A stretch of 63,943 bases of DNA, counting the filler, from Globobulimina sp. (lineage: Eukaryota): assembly GCA_003354225.1 (NCBI GenBank). It is 43 parts of 43 records of this genome, joined end to end, with 100 filler letters (N's around TTAATTAATTAA, not from the genome) between each part and the next. Parts side by side here need not be neighbours in the genome. Positions count along the whole stretch, not along the records: positions 49,159 to 50,547 come from PIVH01017473.1; 42 more parts are not named here. One strand, given 5' to 3'. Both the position numbers and the translations under genes were made by a program. The notes beneath the pieces were generated by a model. It was not told the DNA's origin, did no database searches, and was given only the letters and a program-made list of their open reading frames with translations. Position 1 is the stretch's first letter; each line of letters opens with the position of its first letter. Shown piece by piece: positions 10,436-60,868 of this stretch.

Positions 10436-11649
10436 CGATTATTATATAAATACAAATCATCTGTTTCACTCCACACAGCTCCGGCATTGCCATTATTAGT
10501 CACAACCTCTACATCATTGCCTTTATCATTCTCAATGATTTTAATATCTCCATCAGTATCATGAGTACCATCTAATTGTTGACAAACACATGTTTTGCAT
10601 TTAAAATAGTTCTGCATAATTTGCGTATAATCATCATCATATATTTTATTTGTGGCTAGAATGTGACTGATTGGTCGCAATACAAATACCATTCTTGCTG
10701 CAATGTTAAAACTCCACAACAATGACAAGAATAACATGTTTAAGTGGGATATACTGCATCTCCTCGCATTAACAGCATCAGCTACATCTTCAATGTATTC
10801 AATTAATTGGAATATGCCACATAGTAACTTATCTTTTGTTGTCTGACATGACAGTTCGAACTGTTTCACTTTATTATCATAGGCAAAGGTGGTAATAAAC
10901 CATAACATCAATTCCCTTAATTGTTTGAAACTTATTTGAGTATAAATGCCATTAAATGTATCATTGGCAGGGTGCAATTCCAATGGTACTATGCTCATAA
11001 TACGAGCTATTAACTCACAGTCCGTGCATAATAATGTCCGAAATCTTGCTCTGTAAACCAATAACGACAAATGAGCCTAGTTTTGCATACGTTTAATAAT
11101 ACAAACAAAATAATTAAATATATACTACGTTAGCAACTAAACTCTCGTACATTGGATGCCTTGATCTCTTTGCCATTTCTGATATTTTTTTACCGCCTTT
11201 TTTTTCTTTTTATTTCCTTTGTTTTGAAGTTTAGCATTTTGTAAATTAAACATTGAAGTCTCATCAATATCAATCTGAACAGAAACACCTTTAAACTCCT
11301 CATTGTTTTTATTATTCGAATTGGTGTCACAGTCACTCGAATCCATTAAATCTGTTTTGCTCTCATTGATACTTTGCATCATATTCCAGTATGGATCATT
11401 TTGTAATGAATTATTTGAATTATTTAAATCTGTTTTATTAAATAAATCAATCTCAAATTCATCATCATCTTCTTCTTGTTTTTTTAAGTCATCGTTTTGA
11501 TTCATATTATTATCTGATTCATCATCGTCATCTGATGAAAATCCAAATGCTCCATTATTATTATTATTATTATCCTCAATTAATGTCGATGGAATAATAG
11601 CAATTTTCCTTTTTTTTGATGGACTTTGCTGCACATTGTTCTCATTCAA
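10436..11649 (-). CDS. Hypothetical multi-exon protein with acidic/Asn-rich N-terminus and NLS-like PSKKRK
   Basis: Two long same-strand ORFs separated by about 65 nt of AT-rich intron-like sequence. Confidence 0.5.
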
Positions 11650-16395: not shown

Positions 16396-17785
16396 CACCG
16401 CAGTCCCGGCAAAGCGTGAAAGCAATGGCTGTCCACATATTTGGTGCATGACATGTCCAAATTCATGGAAAAAGGTCACAACATCGTCATGGCCCAACAA
16501 TGCCGGCTTATCCTTGCTTGCTTTGGGAAAGTTGCACAACATAACATTTACAGGTAACTGTCTCCCAACTTCCTCGCCCGAATCATCATACATTCTGCAG
16601 CCAGTTTGCAGAGTTATTTTGCAGGCATGGCCATATTTGCCTGGCCGGGGATGTAGATCCAAAAAGAAATGGCCCACCAATGCCCCGCTCGCACTGTCCA
16701 TGACTTGGTATAGCCCAACCTCAGAATGCCAGAATTTAAATTGCGACTCGCTCTCTTCGACGGGCAAAAAAAGCAAACCCAACAATGTCTGATAAATGCT
16801 CAATGCGCCATCGATCACAGTTTTCAACGGGAAATATTCCCGCAACGCTTCCTTATCGATCGCAAATTCCTTCTCTTCTCTCAACGTGCAATAATATCGG
16901 AAATCGTATTCATGGATCACAGCATCAAACTGCTCGCCACACTGTTTCCTCTCTTCCCGCTTCAGCGCCAGCAATGCATTCATGTCCTCCTTGGCCAACG
17001 GCTCCATTTTCGCATTCAAATCGTGCAAAAAGTCCCACACAGTCTGCGGCTTTCTCGCCATTCGAATTTCCAACACATGCTCAGAATGCGTGGCCTTCCC
17101 CAACAACGCCGCGTGTTCGTACCGCAGCCGCACCAATTCCTCCATAATGGTCGTGTTCTGCGCCATGCACTTTGAATTATGCGCAAACAGCAGCTTCTCC
17201 CTCGTCGCTGCTACCTTACATTTGCGTAAAATTGGGAACAAATCCGGATATTTCAGAGTCACATCGTACTTTCCAGCATCGTCGCCATCCGAAATCAAGC
17301 GAGCTTCCTTCCAATCTTCCAACATACCGTCCAACTCTTTCTCCTCCAGCACAAATTTGCTGTTTTCCTCATTCAAATTCTTTGAAAACTCGCTGGAAAT
17401 TGCGCTCATTCTTTTTTTTATAGCTTTAATGCGTGCATAGTTTTCGTCCGATAAGTCCAACCCCGATCGCCTGTAATCCCTCAATGTAAAATCTAAAAAT
17501 CGCCTCCATTCTGGCTCCAGCACAATATTGTCGACATTCACTTTTTCAGCGTAGAGTTTAATAGCATTATACACATCTTTTCGCATAGAAACCTCCACTG
17601 CAAATTTGCGCAACTGTACCTCTGCAGAATTGGAGGCATCGCGGATGGCTTTGTCGGGCGACACATTTTGCAGAAAAGTCACGCAGTTTTCGATGCCACT
17701 CAAGCGTTGATCCAATTGTATCAACGGCACCAATATGCTTTGTGTGGTCAGGTTTTCATTGTCTTGGATGGCAGCAATATTATCC
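16396..17785 (-). CDS. Thimet oligopeptidase/neurolysin (peptidase M3A), internal fragment
   Basis: FFLDLHPRPGKYGHA, TFFHEFGHVMH zinc motif, VTLKYP. Confidence 0.95.
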
Positions 17786-21003: not shown

Positions 21004-21617
21004 ATGGAAAAACAATTTATTAATATCACCATTAAATCCACGAGTGAGTGTTTTAGGGAAGATGTTAAAATACATTGCCACCGTTTGAGTAATCCAAGAA
21101 ACGTATTTCAAAAACTATCATTCAAAACAAATTGTGCGTCAAATGTCAAGTTGGCTCAAAATGGTAAATATTTTGAAAACGGTACACTAGCTTCAAATGG
21201 TGTGGTGGATGGAGATGTTTTATATGCGGATTACAGTGAACCAGATGATTGGACTGGGCAAATGTATGCATATCTTAACATGTTCCTTTTTGAATAAAAT
21301 GCCAATGAGTATATGCGTATCATTTGAACAGTTATATAAGGACCGAATCTTCAAAGACGATAACTCGGATCGTGAGTAGTTATGAAACAGTTAAAAGTGT
21401 GAAAAAAAAGATTCAAAAAATTGCACCAAAGCAACAGAAATTGAATTTTAATGGTTTGCCAATGGAGAATGCGCGCAAAATATGGTATTATGGAATAAAT
21501 GAAGGATCGACATTGGACTTAATATCCGGATATATTGGGAGCTATGATGATGAGAATCAGCCTCTTCTTACATCCTCAAATCGCCGTACATGTTGCAATA
21601 AGTGTCTTATCTTATAA
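21004..21617 (+). CDS. Tandem ubiquitin-like protein ending in CaaX, intron 21264-21331
   Basis: Splicing gives GQIYIRTESSKTITRIVSSYETVKSVKKKIQ (ubiquitin N-terminus), then YGINEGSTLDL; ends CCNKCLIL*. Confidence 0.8.
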
Positions 21618-21750
21618 AAACATTTGTATCTGTAGCTATGATTTTACTTGAGAAAAATTAAAAAATCTTACAGTAAAAAAAAACTTTCCCTACTATCTTT
21701 ACAATAATTCGACCAGTTCCCTAGCATTCGGAGTGTGACAAGTCACAAAT

Positions 21751-22255
21751 ATGGGTTCTTGTTTCAGCACACAAACATGTATATGTACCACCCGCCATTT
21801 AGCAGCAGCTGCAGCTGCAGCTGCACAGTCTGTGGCGCATTTGGAAGAAGAAAATTCAGTAAAAATCTTGTTATTAGGCACATTGGGATGCGGCAAATCG
21901 AGCATACTCAGACAATTACAGAAACTCAGCGATGAGCCGCGAAATATAGCAGAGCCACACATGTCGGCATACATCAAAGAGGCAGTTGTTGCGGACATGA
22001 AAACATTATGCGAATATCCTCAGTTATGTCTGCATCAAAGTCATGAATATCTTCGTGATGAGATGGTGGCATTGCAGAGTCCATTTAAATTGAGCCATAA
22101 CATTGCGTTTAAAATCAAAGAATTGTACAAAGACATTGCTATTCGGCAGACATTGCAGAAACGGGATGATTTTGGACTTTCTGTGTGTGAGAATATTGAT
22201 TATTTCTTTGATAAAATGGACGACATTGCGTTGGATGGATACGAGCCGTCGTTTG
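21751..22255 (+). CDS. Divergent heterotrimeric G-protein alpha subunit, 3' partial
   Basis: MGSC acylation site, VKILLLGTLGCGKSSILRQL P-loop, helical-domain tail 'YFFDKMDDIA...YEPS'. Confidence 0.8.
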
Positions 22256-23845: not shown

Positions 23846-24758
23846 AATATCGGAACTGAGTGGAGGGAGCGATGTGGCTCAAATCACAACGACTGCAGAA
23901 AAAACCGCTGATGGCCAATATTATATTGTCAATGGCAACAAATATTGGATCACAACTGGTCACCGTGCCGATTATTTTGTGACTTTGGTGCGAACCAAAC
24001 CGATTGATACAGGACGGCATGGCGTGAGTTTATTATTAATACCTCGTTGCAAAGGCGTGTTTACGTCAAAGATACAGGTTCAAGGAACGCGTGGTAGCGA
24101 TACTGCAGCGGTGACATTTGCAAATGTCAAGGTATGATAATCTAAAATATGCACAGTAGGATGCAAAATAAAATAACAGCTCTCATAACTCATAAGGTTC
24201 CAGTGGCAAATTTAATATATGCAGAAAACAAAGGATTTGTGCCATTGATGACCAATTTCAATCGGGAGAGGTTTATAATTTGTGCGGGCGTTGTAGCCAA
24301 TTCTCGTTTGTGTGTCACCGAAGCAATTAAATGGGCGAAGGAAAGGAAAACGTTTGGAAAGAGATTGATTGACCATCAAGTGATAAAGCATAAAATCGCG
24401 ACGATGTCCCGCAAGGTGTTGGCGTGTCAATCATTTTTGGAGCGGGTTGCGTATCAAATGAAATATGATCCATATGGCTCGAATGATAAGTCCGTGGTTC
24501 GCAATGTAAGTTTGTTGAAAGTGCAATGCTCGCAATGTTTCCAATATTGTACGATTGAGGCGTCACAAATATTTGGTGTGTGTTTATTGCAATTTATTTA
24601 TGGGTATTTATGCAAATTTAAAAGGTGGGAGATCGTATGTTCGTGGTGGGAGAGGAGGTGTTGTTGAGAGGCTTTATCGCGTTGTTCGACAGAATGCAAT
24701 TGCTGGCGGATCAGAAGAGATTATGCTAGATTTGGCAATGAGACAAGCAAAATTATAA
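23846..24758 (+). CDS. Acyl-CoA dehydrogenase with PTS1 (-AKL), 5' partial; introns 24132-24196 and 24576-24624
   Basis: SEL-SGGSDV, VNGNKYWIT, RKTFGK, QIFGG, IAGGSEEIM; ends AKL*. Confidence 0.92.
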
Positions 24759-25903: not shown

Positions 25904-26717
25904 ATGTTCGGACGATTATTCGGCACCAATCAAACCAAAAAGAAAGTGGCGGCTCCCAATTTGAACGACTCCATCCAACAGTTACGCCAAGCCGTCACCC
26001 AATTGGACAAACGGGAAGTTCATTTGGACAAAAAAATCCAAGTTTGCTTAAACAACGCCAAGGCCAAATCCAAGCGCAGGGACAAAAAAGGTGCATTGTA
26101 CGAGTTAAAGAAGAAAAAACAATTAGAAAATCAGTTGAATTCCATACAAGGCAAAAAATTGAATTTAGAAACACAAATTATGGCCTTAGAGGATGCGCAT
26201 TTAAATAAAGAGACGTTGAAGGTATTATATCTCACTTCCAATCCTCGCAAAATCGCATACCACACACACCACAAAACCAAACCAAATGACAGGCCATGAA
26301 AACGTCCGCAAACGCCATGAAAGCCACGGTGAAAGAATCAGACTTAGACAGAGCCGACGAATTAATGGAGGACATCAACGAAGCCATGGACCAAGTCAAT
26401 GAAATGAATGAGGCCATGTCGCAGCCATTGGGCCAGGTTATGGACGACGATGAGTTAGAGGCAGAATTGGCGGAATTGGAGGAGTTGGAAGCCGACGAAT
26501 TGTTAAATGATATGGCCGATGCTCCCGTGGTCCATCAACCACAGTCATACAATGGCGATGTGCTTAATATGCCGAGTGCTCCCGATGGCAAAATACGTTT
26601 ACGTTTAGTTTTCTATATATTTGTGCGTTATGTCTGCAAATTGCCGTACTTTGTATAGCTCCAAAACAACAAGAAGAAGAGGATGAATTGGCGGAATTGG
26701 AACCTATGATGAATTAA
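25904..26717 (+). CDS. SNF7: ESCRT-III Snf7/Vps32 (CHMP4); introns 26222-26292 and 26597-26658
   Basis: MFGRLFG, ALYELKKKKQLENQL, LETQIMALE, DDDELEAELAELE, C-terminal EDELAELE. Confidence 0.93.
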
Positions 26718-47669: not shown

Positions 47670-49058
47670 AAAGACAGCAAATATATGATATATGGCTCCA
47701 TAAATATTTCATAGTCAATGACTTCACCGTTGAGAATGTGATTGATTTATCACAGACATTTATTAAACTGTTAAAATTAGACGACACTGTACCTATAGAC
47801 CCATTTATTTCTGTTTTGGGGGAGAAACAATTGAATGGAGAGGCATTAGTCAGTAAATCAAGAAAAGAATTTGGTGCTTTATTTAAAACAAAAATGAGTG
47901 GAGTAGCTCCCAGAGCCTTTTCTAGAGTGCATAACAAATTTGCAGTGTGGAAAAAGTGGAAACCAAAAAAAAGCAAAAAAGGAAAAAAAGACAGCAAAAC
48001 ACAACCTAAAATGATACACGAAGATAACAAATATGACGAGAAAGATGAAAATAAAAAAGAAGAAAAAAAAGAAAAAAAAGAACAAGATACACCGATACCA
48101 CATTGTAGACGCTATGAAAGACAGAATGATGACGATATACTACCAAAGTATATGTATAAAAGTGTTTAGTTTTAAATAACTCTGTCAGATAGAAACAATA
48201 TTTATAGATTTGCGAATATAAAATATATAAATACAGATATTCCATCAATCAGAAGATGAAACATTAGAAGTATTAATAGATACGGCAGTGTTAAAGGTGT
48301 TAGGTCGAAAGATTTGGAACAAAGAGTCGTTTGTCAAGCAAATATATAATGATGAAGAATATTATGAGGCAGTGGGTAAAGTGTATGAAGAAGTGGGAGG
48401 AAATCAATTTTTTGACGATTTTATTGAGAAATATGCCAAGCGAGAATTGGAAGTTTGGAGAATTAGAAGGGAAGATTCAGAGCCTATTAACGAACCAGAA
48501 CAAATATATAAGATGTTGCAATCAGTTGATTTCGACGATTTAGATGAAGATCAATCAAATCATATCGATAAAGAAGAGTTTTTGCAGTATTTTCGCGAGC
48601 AACATATGCGAATTAATGCGGATATATTAATGAAGGTTTTTGCCGAAATCGATGAGATTGACGAAAAAGATCAAAAAATCACCCGAAATGAATACAAAAT
48701 GTGGAAAAATGATATAAAGAAAAAAACATTTTTGATTAAGAATGACGAAAAAGTGGAATTAGATCAACAATTTGATGCTATTGTTTATTGGAATAATAAT
48801 GATAACATTTACGAAATACATGTACAGGGCGGGAAAAAACCCGTTTTTCTGGAAGAAATTATCCCAATTAACGGGAATAACCGCGATAACAATGATGTCT
48901 TTAAATGGGCTCAGTTTGTACCAAAAGCAAAATTAAAAAAACAATTTTTGAACCGGTGCAGGGGGAAAAAATTGGAAAGTTTAGGTTTGACCGTCAATGG
49001 AGAATGGCGAATAATTGATAAAAATGAGGAACAATTACAACATTTAAATTTAATATTT
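47670..49058 (+). CDS. EF-hand-containing hypothetical protein, multi-exon fragment
   Basis: DLDEDQSNHIDKEEF and DEKDQKITRNEY EF-hand pair; intron about 48148-48236. Confidence 0.6.
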
Positions 49059-49158
49059 NNNNNNNNNNNNNNNNNNNNNNNNNNNNNNNNNNNNNNNNNN
49101 NNTTAATTAATTAANNNNNNNNNNNNNNNNNNNNNNNNNNNNNNNNNNNNNNNNNNNN

Positions 49159-50547
49159 GTTGTTGATTCCAATACAAACGGTGAAGAACACGATACTTAT
49201 TACAAAACAACATTGAGTACATCAGATGTCAATTGTGCGAAGCTATTTTTTAATTGGTTTGACGATTTTTTGATTCATATTTATAAAGGTCGCATACGAA
49301 CCATGTATTATAATGGCATTGTCTGGGTACCAGATCCACATAACATTCATTTAAAAAGACGGATTAGTACCGATTTTATTGATAAGTTTGTTGATATGAC
49401 ATCGAAATCTTGTGAAAATAATGGTCAAGCATTTTCAGATTACGACTGCGAACAACTACGTGATAAATTCGAAAAACATTCTAAAATTGAATCTATTTCC
49501 AAAACTTTGCAATTATATTTGTTTGCTGATGTACAATTCGACGACACTCCTTATCCCGTATGTGTCTTTAAAAATGGTGCATACTATCCCAACACCGGGG
49601 AATTTAAATCAGCAACCGACCGCAAAGAATTTATAAGTAACCAACTGTATATTGATAATACTTTTCGCGGGAAACCTGATGCAGATATTGATCTTTTTGA
49701 GGAAAAGTTTATTAAACCAATATTACCAGACGATGAAATGCGCAGATTTTTTTTATTGTTTGCTTCGCAGGTATTGAGTAATGATAAAGATAAATATGTA
49801 ATGCTTATGCATGGTCCGAAAGGTTTGTATCTGTTACTAATAAACAAAATACCATAAACAAACTAAAACAAAAATAAAAGGTAATAATGGAAAAACACAA
49901 CTATTGAAACTAATTTGTAATTCGATCGGTATGTATGCTCATGGACTGTGCGATGATTATTTCACCGCCACAAAGTGTGACAGTTTCGCAGCTCACGAGA
50001 TGCACAGAAAGAGATTGTTATATGTCGAAGAGATGTCAGATAAGTCACCGTTGTTATCTAACCGAGTTAAGAATACGACAGGATGCCCTGACGCCAGTCA
50101 CCGAGCGATATTTTCAACCGAAACCAAAGTCGATCTTTTTGGTCAATTGTTTTTCATAACGAATGACAAACTGCGTTGGTCTGATTATAAACCCGCTACC
50201 ATCCAGCGCATTTTGTATATGATCTTTCCGACGCGGTTTGTGCCATTCGACGCAGATGAAACACAAAACGAAACATTACAGGAAAATGGTTTTGATTTGC
50301 TGACTTTCAAAAAAAATGCGCGTATGCACATGTTCTTGGTACTTGCAAAATATTACATGATACGACATCAATTCTTTTATGGCGCATTACCTATGAATAA
50401 TACAATCATCTGGTGGAAAAAATGGTACCTGTTTCAAGTAAACCCGTTTTTGGTATGGTTCGCACAAATATACATCGAAACCGTCAATAGTAACGACAAA
50501 ATTTCCATTGCCTCGATTGTTGAACAATATGAAATTCACATTTATGC
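49159..50547 (+). CDS. D5-like primase-helicase (SF3), intron 49823-49880, fragment
   Basis: D5_N-like VFKNGAY; spliced Walker A HGPKGNNGKT; Walker B LLYVEE; motif C FFITND; RILYMIFPTRF. Confidence 0.85.
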
Positions 50548-50726
50548 NNNNNNNNNNNNNNNNNNNNNNNNNNNNNNNNNNNNNNNNNNNNTTAATTAAT
50601 TAANNNNNNNNNNNNNNNNNNNNNNNNNNNNNNNNNNNNNNNNNNNNAACCTAAAATAACAACCAGGCAATGAATTGAAAACACACACACACACAAAAAA
50701 AGGTGGATTTCAGAAGTATATCACTT

Positions 50727-55475: not shown

Positions 55476-56208
55476 TTTAGCTAAATTTTGGACGATGGTC
55501 GAATTATACATATCGTGCGTACGCGCTGCCCATAATCCCTCTGCCATGGCGGTCTACATATGCACTAAACCCGCGGGGAACATCGACAAAAACATCTGCG
55601 CCGCAATACCGCCATTCAACGACCAAAACGCCACCGGCACGATCTTAGGCGACCAATACTTCTCTTGCACCGTATGTTGCACACAAAATAAGACGCTGGC
55701 AATGGCAATATTTCCTTATACGCCCCACATGGCGGCATGAGCGTGATTGCCAGTCAAATACGTCGAGTGCATATAATAATTAACCACCGGCAAATTGATA
55801 AACGAGCCCAGGATTCCGACACCAAATACATTCCAGAAGTTGACGCCCAACATAAATAACCACACACCGCATAATATGCTTCTGATTTCCTTTGGCTTGC
55901 TCCAACTCGGCTTTCTCGCGCAATTGAATGAATTTCCAGGCGTCCATCGTCAGCAAAATAAGAGGCATCACCTGCGTCGTCGAGAAGGCGCTGCCCATCG
56001 CAATGACTCCCGTTGGCTTCGCAATCAGATAAAAATTATGACCAACACCGATGGTCGCAGTCAAAAAGAACAACATCACCGCGATATACGTGGCTCGCTC
56101 CGCTGCCTTTTTGCTCACTAATCCCATTTCGCGGTACAAGAATGCCACAATCACAGTGGTGAACACTTCAAAAGTTACCTCGACCAACATATGCACCATC
56201 ATCCACCG
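55476..56208 (-). pseudogene. Nod-type (NO dismutase-like) qNor-family heme-copper oxidase fragment, disrupted
   Basis: RWMMVHMLVEVTFEVF, GHNFYLIAKP, FSTTQV, NYYMHSTYLTGNHAHAAMWGV; frameshift about 55869; stops at 55716-55718 and 55554-55556. Confidence 0.88.
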
Positions 56209-56603
56209 CCCATATATGCCACATAAGTTACCCCGACCCAAATAAATTGTTTTAAATTCATCTCAGATTCGACATAAATAATAATAATCGTTTTAATCCA
56301 TTCCAATATGCTCCACGCGACGTCTAATAACTATATATGCTATTTTTTTTTTTATTTTTTTTATTTTTTATGGCAAAATCGCCTGTTGTTTTTGAGATTG
56401 CTTTTAAACTAATATAGCATATGCTTATGTTACATAGATGTTTCGTATGTAAACTGCTATCGTAGTTTAAAAATCCAATCTCGGCTAGAAGTGACTGTAA
56501 AAGNNNNNNNNNNNNNNNNNNNNNNNNNNNNNNNNNNNNNNNNNNNNTTAATTAATTAANNNNNNNNNNNNNNNNNNNNNNNNNNNNNNNNNNNNNNNNN
56601 NNN

Positions 56604-57991
56604 TTATTATCGCTTTGAACCATATTTACGTCAAAGTATTGTCTTATTTGTGCGCGAAAACAAACCAAATTATATCTTATCCGATGCAGGCCGCGAAAAA
56701 GAAAAAGATTTTTATATTTCCATCCAAAATTTTAATGCACAAATTCAATATAATTTACGTGAATTAACCACCAATAAAATCGGACAATTATGCACCTTCA
56801 ACGCCACCATCACTCGCACCTCGCAAGTACGCCCAGAATTAATTTCAGCCACATTCGAATGTACGATGTGTAACAAGTTAATGAAGAATGTCATGCAACA
56901 ATTCAAATATACCCAGCCCATCACATGTACAAATAACCAATGCGGTAATCGCAAATTATTCAAATTGGATATCTCCCGCAGCAAATTTATAGATTGGCAG
57001 AAATGCCGCGTCCAAGAATTATCACAAGATATCCCAGCCGGAAGTATGCCGCGTTCCATCGATGTTATTTTACGCAATGAGCAATGCGAGAAATGCAAAC
57101 CTGGCGACAATGTATTATTCACAGGCACATTGATAGTGGTCCCCAGCAATGAAAGCAAGCGATCAAACCAAGGCAACACCAAATTAGTACGCAACAACAG
57201 CAGCGTTGGTCCCTCCACCAACAATATTACTGGCTTGAAATCCATTGGTATTCGCGAATTAAATTACAAATTGGTATTCTTAGCAAACAACGTGGACAAA
57301 GTTAAGCAATCTCCGCTTTTAATGTGCATTTTATTTTACATTGTTTTTAATTGTTTGCAGTCGGAAAAAGATGATATGGAAAACATGGATGATGAGGAAA
57401 TCATCGATACTTTTTCTGCCGACGAACGACGCGACATATTATTAATGAAAGAGACCTCGTCGTTGTATCAAAATATAACTAACTCGATTGCGCCGTCCAT
57501 CTACGGACATGAAGAGATAAAACGCGGTATTTTGCTACAATTATTTGGCGGTGTACATAAAACCACGGCTGGTGGCTATAATAAGTTACGTGGTGATATA
57601 AATATTTGTATCGTTGGCGATCCGTCAACTGCAAAATCGCAATTTTTGAAATTTGTGACTGATATGTTGCCATCAAAAACGATTTATACGTCTGGCAAAG
57701 CGTCGTCTGCCGCAGGTTTAACTGCCGCTGTTATTCGAGATAAAGAAACGGGAGAAATGGGCATCGAAGCTGGTGCATTGATGTTGGCAGATAATGGTAT
57801 TTGTTGTATTGATGAGTTTGATAAAATGGACGAGCTCGATCAGACTGCCATTCATGAAGCCATGGAGCAGCAAACTATCACCATTACGAAAGCCGGCATC
57901 CATTGTTCATTAAATGCACGTACAGCGATCTTAGCCGCTTGTAATCCCGTTTGGGGCAGATATGATACTTCGAAACCAATCAAAATGTTTT
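56604..57991 (+). CDS. MCM6: DNA replication licensing factor MCM6, fragment; in-frame intron 57301-57360
   Basis: TRTSQVRPEL, IPAGSMPRSIDVILR, LFGGVHK, GDPSTAKSQ, GKASSAAGLTA, IDEFDKM. Confidence 0.93.
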
Positions 57992-59479: not shown

Positions 59480-59620
59480 NNNNNNNNNNNNNNNNNNNNN
59501 NNNNNNNNNNNNNNNNNNNNNNNTTAATTAATTAANNNNNNNNNNNNNNNNNNNNNNNNNNNNNNNNNNNNNNNNNNNNAATATATTAATATACAGTATC
59601 ACTGCTGACACGTACTACAA

Positions 59621-60868
59621 ATGTGGAATCAGCACACGTTTACTATCAACAAACGACCAATAGATGACTCAAGCGATGATGAAATGTTATTTCAAACTGT
59701 CTTAGATCAATGGAAATTGCCTCAATATGCAGATATTTTACAAGCAGAAGGTATTTCCATTTTTGTTTTAAATATAGGATTCATTAAATACTGCACATGC
59801 CCATACATTCAAGGTTGGGACGATCCTGACGTATGGACCGAATTGGATGAAAATACATTAATTTCCATGGGATTTAAATCAGGCCATCGAGCAAAGTTTA
59901 TTAAAAACGTCCGCCAACACTATGGCTCAAATACTACGAAACAATCTGACGACACTGAGGAACTGGAAAACGAAGCGAAAGAAAAAAGTGATCCGCTGAC
60001 CAAATTGCCATTTATATCTTCAATGAAAAAACAATTATTAACAATTTGCAATGAAAACAATAAATATGTGACCGCAGCATTAATTTCTGCAGAGATGCAT
60101 AATATGAAATATTTATATTACAAAGGACATGATTTTGCACATAGTGTGATACAGTCCGTTGGTTATATTCTTAAACAAGAGACTGTCCATTCGGGCATTG
60201 AAGCGTTTCGATATTATGAAGGTAGCGATGCATTTGGATTAATTGTTATCAATAAAGATAAAGAAAACATACTTTCCATTGCAAACAAGATTAGTGCAAA
60301 TATTAATAGTTAGACAAAGGCAAACATGACAATGGGAATAGCAATGAGTCGTTATAAGGAAACTAAAGATATTTGGTTTCAAAGAGCAGAGAATGCATTG
60401 AAAAAAGCAAAACAAAATGGAAAAAGTCAAATTGTTTTTGAAAATGACATGATATTTATTTATAAAAACAAAAATAAAATTACGCCGCAAAATAAATATC
60501 CATTTACTTTTGGTGGGAATGTTGAGAGTTCATTTGGTGTCAAGAAAATTAAAAAATGGACAACGAAAGATTTATGTGATTGGGTAAAAGGTATTGGTTT
60601 ATCCGATCAGTGGCAGGCGATCATGGTGGAAACAATTCTTTGTACGGGATGTATAGGCCAGGATTGGTTGGCAATTCGGTCTGGGAAAGACTTAGCCGAT
60701 GTATTTGATATTCAACAACCAATGTTAGCAAATCGAGTTTTTAGAGAGTTTAAAAAAGTCAAAGAAGACCGGGTCAAGTTAATGGCACAACGAGCTGCGG
60801 AAAGTGTTACTTATGTATCACCAATGCATGATTTACAATTATTTGGACAGAATGAATATTGGAAATGA
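59621..60868 (+). CDS. SAM - degenerate GGDEF - SAM protein; intron 59751-59813; in-frame TAG at 60311-60313
   Basis: SAM LDQWKLPQY..GFKSGHRAKF; GGDEF-like KGHDFAHSVI, FRYYEGSDAFGLI, MGIA...WFQRAENALKKAKQNGKSQ; second SAM KWTTKDLCDWV. Confidence 0.72.

Follow-up and report, generated by a model that had tools for sequence, protein, structure and literature searches.

A D5-type SF3 helicase gene of viral ancestry with a putative host-type intron in its P-loop glycine codon, found on a single contig of a Globobulimina assembly

Proteins of the D5/C962R type are the replicative, hexameric SF3 helicases found in large eukaryotic DNA viruses, in virophages and in Polinton-like viruses (PLVs). In the Nucleocytoviricota (vaccinia D5, mpox E5, ASFV C962R and the D5 paralogues of Bodo saltans virus), a D5_N domain is followed by an SF3 ATPase with a G-x-x-G-x-N-G-K P-loop, a Walker B motif, a B' motif, the motif C Asn and a conserved Arg. 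The gene described here shares this domain order and all of these motifs. It differs from the nucleocytovirus genes in being interrupted by a putative intron, whereas intact relatives of 800–1000 aa read as a single frame, and in that its contig starts within or just before D5_N, so that the AEP part lies off the contig. The primase-helicases of virophages and PLVs belong to the same helicase family, and a virophage protein was among the fold neighbours of our query. The SF3 core of the P4-family primases of phages and plasmids (TIGR01613; PHROGs 1156 and 1829) is homologous as well.

The initial annotation of this locus held that such viruses generally lack introns. This is true of most nucleocytoviruses and PLVs, but exceptions have been published (in the accessible text of PMC12768974, PMC9693826 and 10.64898/2026.10.09.758095), and an intron in a viral gene is less surprising because of them. 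Virophages and PLVs are abundant in protist genomes, a rhizarian included (Bellas et al. 2023, PMC10120064), and according to the methods of that paper endogenous viruses of this type ‘do not contain introns’; our gene, with its putative intron, is unlike the elements described there. Nucleocytoviruses are portrayed as generally devoid of spliceosomal introns, with decaying endogenous elements, pandoraviruses and some chloroviruses as exceptions, while mirusviruses are credited with nuclear replication and with tens of thousands of GT-AG introns whose lengths peak near 80 bp (accessible text of PMC12768974). For the giant endogenous viral elements (GEVEs) of Chlamydomonas, 25–72 spliceosomal introns were predicted (PMC9693826, in the text at hand), and in punuivirus 61 of 506 genes carry RNA-verified, host-like introns with a mean length of 176 bp (10.64898/2026.10.09.758095, likewise). 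GEVEs, punuivirus and mirusviruses resemble our locus in that viral genes contain canonical, host-like GT-AG introns and are processed in the nucleus, as far as these texts describe them. In contrast to punuivirus and mirusviruses as presented there, the element studied here measures 58 nt, comes from another host group and is predicted to be spliced from its sequence alone. A D5-type helicase was not named as intron-bearing in the accessible parts of PMC9693826, 10.64898/2026.10.09.758095 and PMC12768974.

We analysed a window of 63,943 bases, which is the whole stretch of DNA under study and consists of 43 contigs of 1388–1391 bp each, sorted by size and joined by linkers. The linkers (N runs enclosing TTAATTAATTAA) are six-frame stop linkers, and synteny across them is artificial. 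The neighbours of the helicase contig in the window are therefore uninformative, being unrelated contigs. The assembly, that of an AT-rich protist, is highly fragmented. The helicase contig spans positions 49159–50547 as one entire contig of 1389 bp and truncates the gene at both ends; it holds the helicase gene alone, so that linkage to capsid, packaging ATPase, protease, integrase or TIR sequences is beyond its reach. Our conclusions extend as far as this single 1.4-kb fragment without flanks allows. Its features are as follows.

49059–49158, no strand: artificial linker made of TTAATTAATTAA with an N run on either side, separating unrelated contigs; its counterpart is at 50548–50647
49159–49822, + strand: exon A, truncated by the start of the contig; covers a D5_N-type domain, the strand that precedes the P-loop and the beginning of Walker A (H-G-P-K and the first base of the Gly codon)
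49823–49880, + strand: putative U2-type spliceosomal intron, 58 nt, phase 1, aag|GTTTGT...AAAAG|gt, predicted from sequence
49881–50547, + strand: exon B, truncated by the end of the contig; contains the SF3 ATPase core and, after it, a helical domain
49813–49897, + strand: Walker A/P-loop G-P-K-G-N-N-G-K-T, interrupted by the putative intron, in register with G-x-x-G-x-N-G-K of the relatives
50015–50032, + strand: Walker B, L-L-Y-V-E-E, with E51 invariant in the family alignment
50069–50104, + strand: B' motif region with K64, T67, G68 and R75 of exon B; G68 and R75 invariant, K64 and T67 at least 90% conserved
50156–50167, + strand: motif C, I-T-N-D, with the sensor-1 Asn (N95) invariant in the family alignment
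50207–50209, + strand: conserved Arg R110, an invariant column in the family alignment

Two frames on the + strand are open in the standard code, at 49159–49854 (232 codons) and 49844–50545 (234 codons); in 500 shuffled versions of the contig, no open run exceeded 138 codons. Outside the 58-nt element the coding parts amount to 221 + 222 codons (~443), with neither stops nor frameshifts. The initial annotation had joined the two frames through a GT-AG segment of this length to give HGPKG|NNGKT, which we confirmed: the junction falls within a Gly codon common to both exons (g|gt, phase 1), the product reads H-G-P-K-G-N-N-G-K-T, and the P-loop signature G-x-x-G-x-N-G-K-[ST] appears only once the 58 nt are removed. 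The Walker B LLYVEE and the motif C ITND that it had placed downstream were also found, at the positions listed above. All columns that are invariant in the family (G1, N3, K5, E51, G68, R75, N95 and R110) are kept in the query, and we take R110 of exon B to be the probable arginine finger.

The halves were scored separately against family models. Exon A matched Pfam D5_N with an E value of 0.002 (18.8 bits, below the gathering threshold of 22.4), and exon B matched Pfam DUF5906 at 3e-5 (25.1 bits, below the cut-off of 27.6) and NCBIfam TIGR01613, the C-terminal domain of P4-family primases, at 3.7e-6. This last score sets the query apart from P4-family primases (26 bits against a cut-off of 108.7), as does a tblastn search of 50,697 phage records, which gave no match. 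Along PHROG 1156 (‘DNA primase’) the two exons abut seamlessly, exon A covering profile positions 391–566 and exon B 567–696; PHROG 1829 matched exon B at 9.3e-9. The ESM Atlas confirmed the same Pfam families.

A phmmer search of exon B against 1.84 billion representatives yielded 124 proteins with E<=1e-3 (best 9.6e-10), many of them 800–1000 aa long, at 22–35% identity among the matches listed and at most 32% among the stronger ones. Pfam scans were run on 38 of these relatives and showed D5_N in 37, accompanied in varying combinations by PriCT_2, DUF5906 and an AEP primase of the C962R or Prim-Pol type; the remaining one, P0004, was a spurious cadherin-repeat match. Exon A was compared with the relatives and matched with E values down to 8.9e-21, and the relatives that it matched carry a Pfam-significant D5_N. 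When each half was run against the 123 relatives left after omission of the cadherin match, 94 matched both halves and 29 exon B only; where the match to exon A was significant, the alignments almost always implied a gap of 0 to -2 residues between the halves. Because the halves align separately to the same relatives and abut within 0–2 residues, they represent one gene in two pieces. We conclude that the two frames encode a D5_N part and an SF3 ATPase part that belong to a single D5/C962R-type primase-helicase gene.

Three metagenomic relatives (P0061, P0097 and P0070) have only 4–6 residues ahead of the P-loop Gly, and the strand in front of the loop is absent from them; a break or split of their genes close to the corresponding place is possible.

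A profile built from the query and 21 relatives gave E values of 6e-43 for ASFV C962R and ~1e-37 for poxvirus D5/E5, and thus favours the proteins of eukaryotic viruses over another primase chain, 7ola, which it matched weakly (7e-4). Exon B alone, in a phmmer search against PDB sequences, gave nothing at E<=10, in contrast to the profile. The AF2 model of exon B had a pLDDT of 80, and Foldseek aligned it with probability 1.00 and TMq 0.75–0.84 to viral D5 proteins and ASFV PrimPol; the TMq range takes in the D5 proteins of Bodo saltans virus and MPXV E5. Its fold neighbours include the D5 helicase-primases of Bodo saltans virus, Hokovirus, HaV01 and pithoviruses as well as some phage proteins, with the primase-helicase of a Yellowstone Lake virophage at rank 13; identity to the BFVD neighbours was at most 23%. 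In the PDB the model matched ASFV PrimPol and MPXV E5/VACV D5. The protein is a D5-type SF3 helicase of viral ancestry; the initial annotation had called it a viral D5-like SF3 helicase, and the Pfam, PHROG and NCBIfam matches, the profile matches to C962R, D5 and E5, and the fold all bear this out.

What separates the two halves has the properties of a spliceosomal intron. The P-loop of the best-matching relative reads N-G-P-S|G-N-N-G-K-T against H-G-P-K|G-N-N-G-K-T of the query, which stands in exact register with the relatives (P0003, for example). We enumerated 29 in-frame, stop-free GT-AG joins of 20–250 nt between the two frames, and only 49823–49880 gives the P-loop register of the relatives; the next best join, of 67 nt, removes G-P-K and has a poor donor. 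The GC content of the element is 0.207, against 0.33 and 0.38 for the exons, which places it in the lowest 3.6% of the 58-nt windows of the contig, and it contains stops in all three frames. GT...AG ends occur in 0.22% of the 57,249 58-nt windows of the whole stretch and in 0.09% of the 6,913 AT-rich ones. The donor, GTTTGT, differs from GTAAGT at +3 and +4. The sequence AAAG|GT is repeated at both borders (4+2 bases), and host introns have similar border repeats.

Other kinds of insert were considered. A scan against Rfam gave no match, which speaks against a group I or group II intron or another known RNA. The fold of the element contains nothing stable and no hairpin (MFE -2.6 kcal/mol), and a repeat search of the 64-kb window found no second copy, only matches of A runs of at most 15 nt; with neither near-identical copies nor a terminal-repeat hairpin in the window, an introner or a MITE-derived intron was rejected. 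The sequencing frameshift that the initial annotation had allowed for is excluded, since the break is no 1–2 nt indel: it is 58 nt long, AT-rich and interrupted by stops in every frame.

Host introns for comparison were obtained from other contigs of the window by Pfam searches of adjacent ORFs on the same strand, combined with an enumeration of joins.

26222–26292: host intron in a Snf7 gene, 71 nt, aag|GTATTA...CAG, with Pfam-supported flanks
24132–24196: host intron in an acyl-CoA dehydrogenase gene, 65 nt, aag|GTATGA...AAG; its removal restores the conserved N-V-K|V-P motif
24576–24624: second host intron in the acyl-CoA dehydrogenase gene, 49 nt, ttg|GTGTGT...AAG, Pfam-supported

With 58 nt the element lies between these introns of 49, 65 and 71 nt; its GC content is 0.21 against 0.25–0.41, and its flanks are of the AG|GT type (n=3, from contigs that may differ in source organism from the helicase contig). 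It fits the local size class and style because the host introns are 49–71 nt long and AT-rich and have similar flanks. The spliceosomal reading of the initial annotation thus stands as a description of sequence properties (GT-AG ends, restored register, composition and host-like size), and the 58 nt at 49823–49880 are very probably a host-style spliceosomal intron.

Two further intron candidates in the window would merge ORFs, at 11077–11142 on the - strand (66 nt) and at 48164–48236 on the + strand (73 nt). Their GC content is 0.21–0.23, they have no homology support, and both begin with GTTTAGTT following an exonic A or T.

The spliceosome would be expected to remove the 58 nt. If they stayed in the message, translation of the upstream frame would end after 11 codons of the element, and in the downstream frame the earliest Met comes only after the P-loop; shifting by +1 where the frames overlap (11 nt, 49844–49854) would add ~19 residues inside the P-loop. 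An active ATPase accordingly needs the removal of exactly these 58 nt, because the unspliced and frameshifted readings break the P-loop. Public sequence pieces from three runs were compared with the contig, and none crosses the intron junction. One is identical to the contig over 219 bp (49424–49642, word depth 2.67, which is low) and ends short of it; a second is a low-complexity match to the A-rich part of the element.

No close relative was found in a word-indexed search among longer proteins, and the ten nearest relatives are metagenome singletons on contigs of 2–20 kb, one of them labelled ‘hypothetical protein’. Viral contigs searched with the relatives P0002, P0003 and P0076 gave no match and hence no context, and the 64-kb window contains no second copy of the helicase gene. 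The initial annotation had suggested a phylogeny with D5 homologues, and this left the query unplaced on a long branch: in a tree of the helicase half (105 rows) its branch measured 2.37 against a median of 0.47, in a tree of both halves (74 rows) 1.79 against 0.64, and in neither did it join a well-supported clade. Local HMMs identified 12 relatives with a C962R-type and 10 with a Prim-Pol-type AEP domain, and these types formed no clean clades on the helicase tree. Among the best labelled fold neighbours nucleocytoviruses predominate, with a virophage and phages also present. The helicase is an orphan, highly divergent branch of the D5 family, for which a giant-virus and a Polinton-like/virophage origin are both possible; the two are indistinguishable here because of the long, unplaced branch, the metagenomic nature of the relatives and the missing viral-contig context.

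The codon usage of the two exons is like that of the host. Measured against the pool of host genes in the window, they have an RSCU distance of 0.389; the host median is 0.413, and 18 of 25 host genes lie farther away. This fits long residence or host adaptation. The gene is presumably part of the host genome, and an endogenous element or a transposon family, as the initial annotation had proposed, is plausible.

On balance we favour the reading, which we consider reasonably probable, that the contig contains the central ~443 codons of a D5/C962R-type gene of viral ancestry with a host-type intron in the Gly codon of its P-loop. Such a gene would reside in an AT-rich, intron-poor protist or replicate in its nucleus, and the host spliceosome would excise the 58-nt phase-1 GT-AG intron from the helicase mRNA. 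Only the spliced mRNA would then encode the ATPase, whereas the unspliced message would give a D5_N-only product. The helicase protein would presumably be made and be active. Several observations count against this reading: both halves score below the Pfam gathering thresholds, the donor departs from the consensus at +3 and +4 and is judged against a host sample of three introns, the long branch could just as well stem from weakened constraint on a decaying copy, and the codon usage of an AT-rich virus can resemble that of its host when the host is AT-rich too.

An alternative that we regard as unlikely is that the gene belongs to an exogenous large DNA virus or PLV that replicates in the nucleus, was sequenced together with the host and has its introns spliced by it. 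The intron would stand and endogeneity would fall. Mirusviruses, with their nuclear replication and their tens of thousands of GT-AG introns (accessible text of PMC12768974), provide a precedent, and the intact catalytic residues, the lack of a close relative and the lack of a second copy in the window count in favour of a free virus. However, the codon usage is indistinguishable from that of host genes, the locus is a 1.4-kb scrap whose matching public piece has a depth of only 2.67 where an abundant virus is usually deeper, and a primase or helicase goes unmentioned for mirusviruses in the accessible text of the same paper. If the long branch is instead read as decay, the contig would be a dead relic of a viral insertion in which the 58 nt are a chance GT...AG insertion, with no splicing and no helicase. 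The very long branch, the identity of at most 32% to the stronger matches and the Pfam scores below gathering agree with this, but a decaying copy would hardly retain 443 codons free of stops and frameshifts apart from the 58 nt and eight of eight invariant family columns, nor would GT...AG be expected by chance (~0.1–0.2% of windows) at the sole positions that restore the P-loop; we consider a relic quite improbable.

The same exactness of the splice signals, with perfect register on both sides, is unexpected if the 58 nt had entered through mis-assembly of low-coverage reads. The assembly is highly fragmented and the depth of the public piece is low, in agreement with an artefact, yet an A+T-rich filler of 58 nt with stops in all frames is atypical of indel errors, and we judge this explanation very improbable. 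Translational recoding, finally, would leave the 58 nt in the message, and ribosomes would either bypass them between matched GGT codons or shift by +1 in the 11-nt overlap. Bypassing with matched take-off and landing codons occurs in phage T4 gene 60, and AAAGGT at both borders of our element (4+2 identical bases) would supply such codons. To our knowledge, ribosomal bypassing is known only from T4 and yeast mitochondria. In the present case no stop directly follows the take-off codon, no stable hairpin is predicted (MFE -2.6 kcal/mol), similar border repeats are found in host introns, and the +1 shift at 49844–49854 would enlarge the P-loop by ~19 residues, all of which makes recoding scarcely credible.

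A virus-derived gene with a host-type intron is a known pattern, and what is new here is a highly divergent member of it. Splicing of the intron would mean that a core enzyme of viral replication is expressed by way of the host's nuclear machinery in a little-studied group of protists, and it would mark either long residence in the genome or a virus that replicates in the nucleus. Intron-blind, prokaryote-style gene calling, which is usual for viral elements of protists, would split or miss such genes. The orphan branch also widens the known diversity of D5-family helicases. A bolder proposal, which we put forward as speculative and think unlikely to be correct, is that the gene represents a deep-branching lineage of nuclear DNA viruses, or of virus-like elements, that is as yet unsampled and occurs in Foraminifera or the host lineage, with core replication genes that depend on the spliceosome, or else a viral D5 helicase domesticated as a spliced cellular gene. 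Were such a spliceosome-dependent lineage real, its host would offer a case of the ‘eukaryotisation’ of small or large DNA virus genomes. Searching the literature for Nucleocytoviricota and endogenous viral elements in foraminifera yielded no paper on the subject.

Other contigs of the window differ in content and perhaps in source. The contig at 16396–17785 has 46.5% GC and a single ORF over its full length, its codon usage is the farthest from the pool (0.673), and its source may be a different organism of the sample. A fragment matching cytochrome oxidase subunit I at 55783–56262 on the - strand (Pfam COX1, E 1.1e-9) indicates that its contig is probably mitochondrial. An ORF of eukaryotic appearance at 59609–60310 (+) has a weak, sub-threshold match to SAM_2 and one to a bacterial-type GGDEF diguanylate cyclase (E 7.6e-4; 19.7 bits, where the cut-off is 23.8). 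One contig of 1.39 kb carries both an ORF of the ubiquitin family and the start of a G-alpha subunit (21309–21614 and 21739–22254, both +), and the MCM contig at 56604–57991 is an example of a single-copy host gene.
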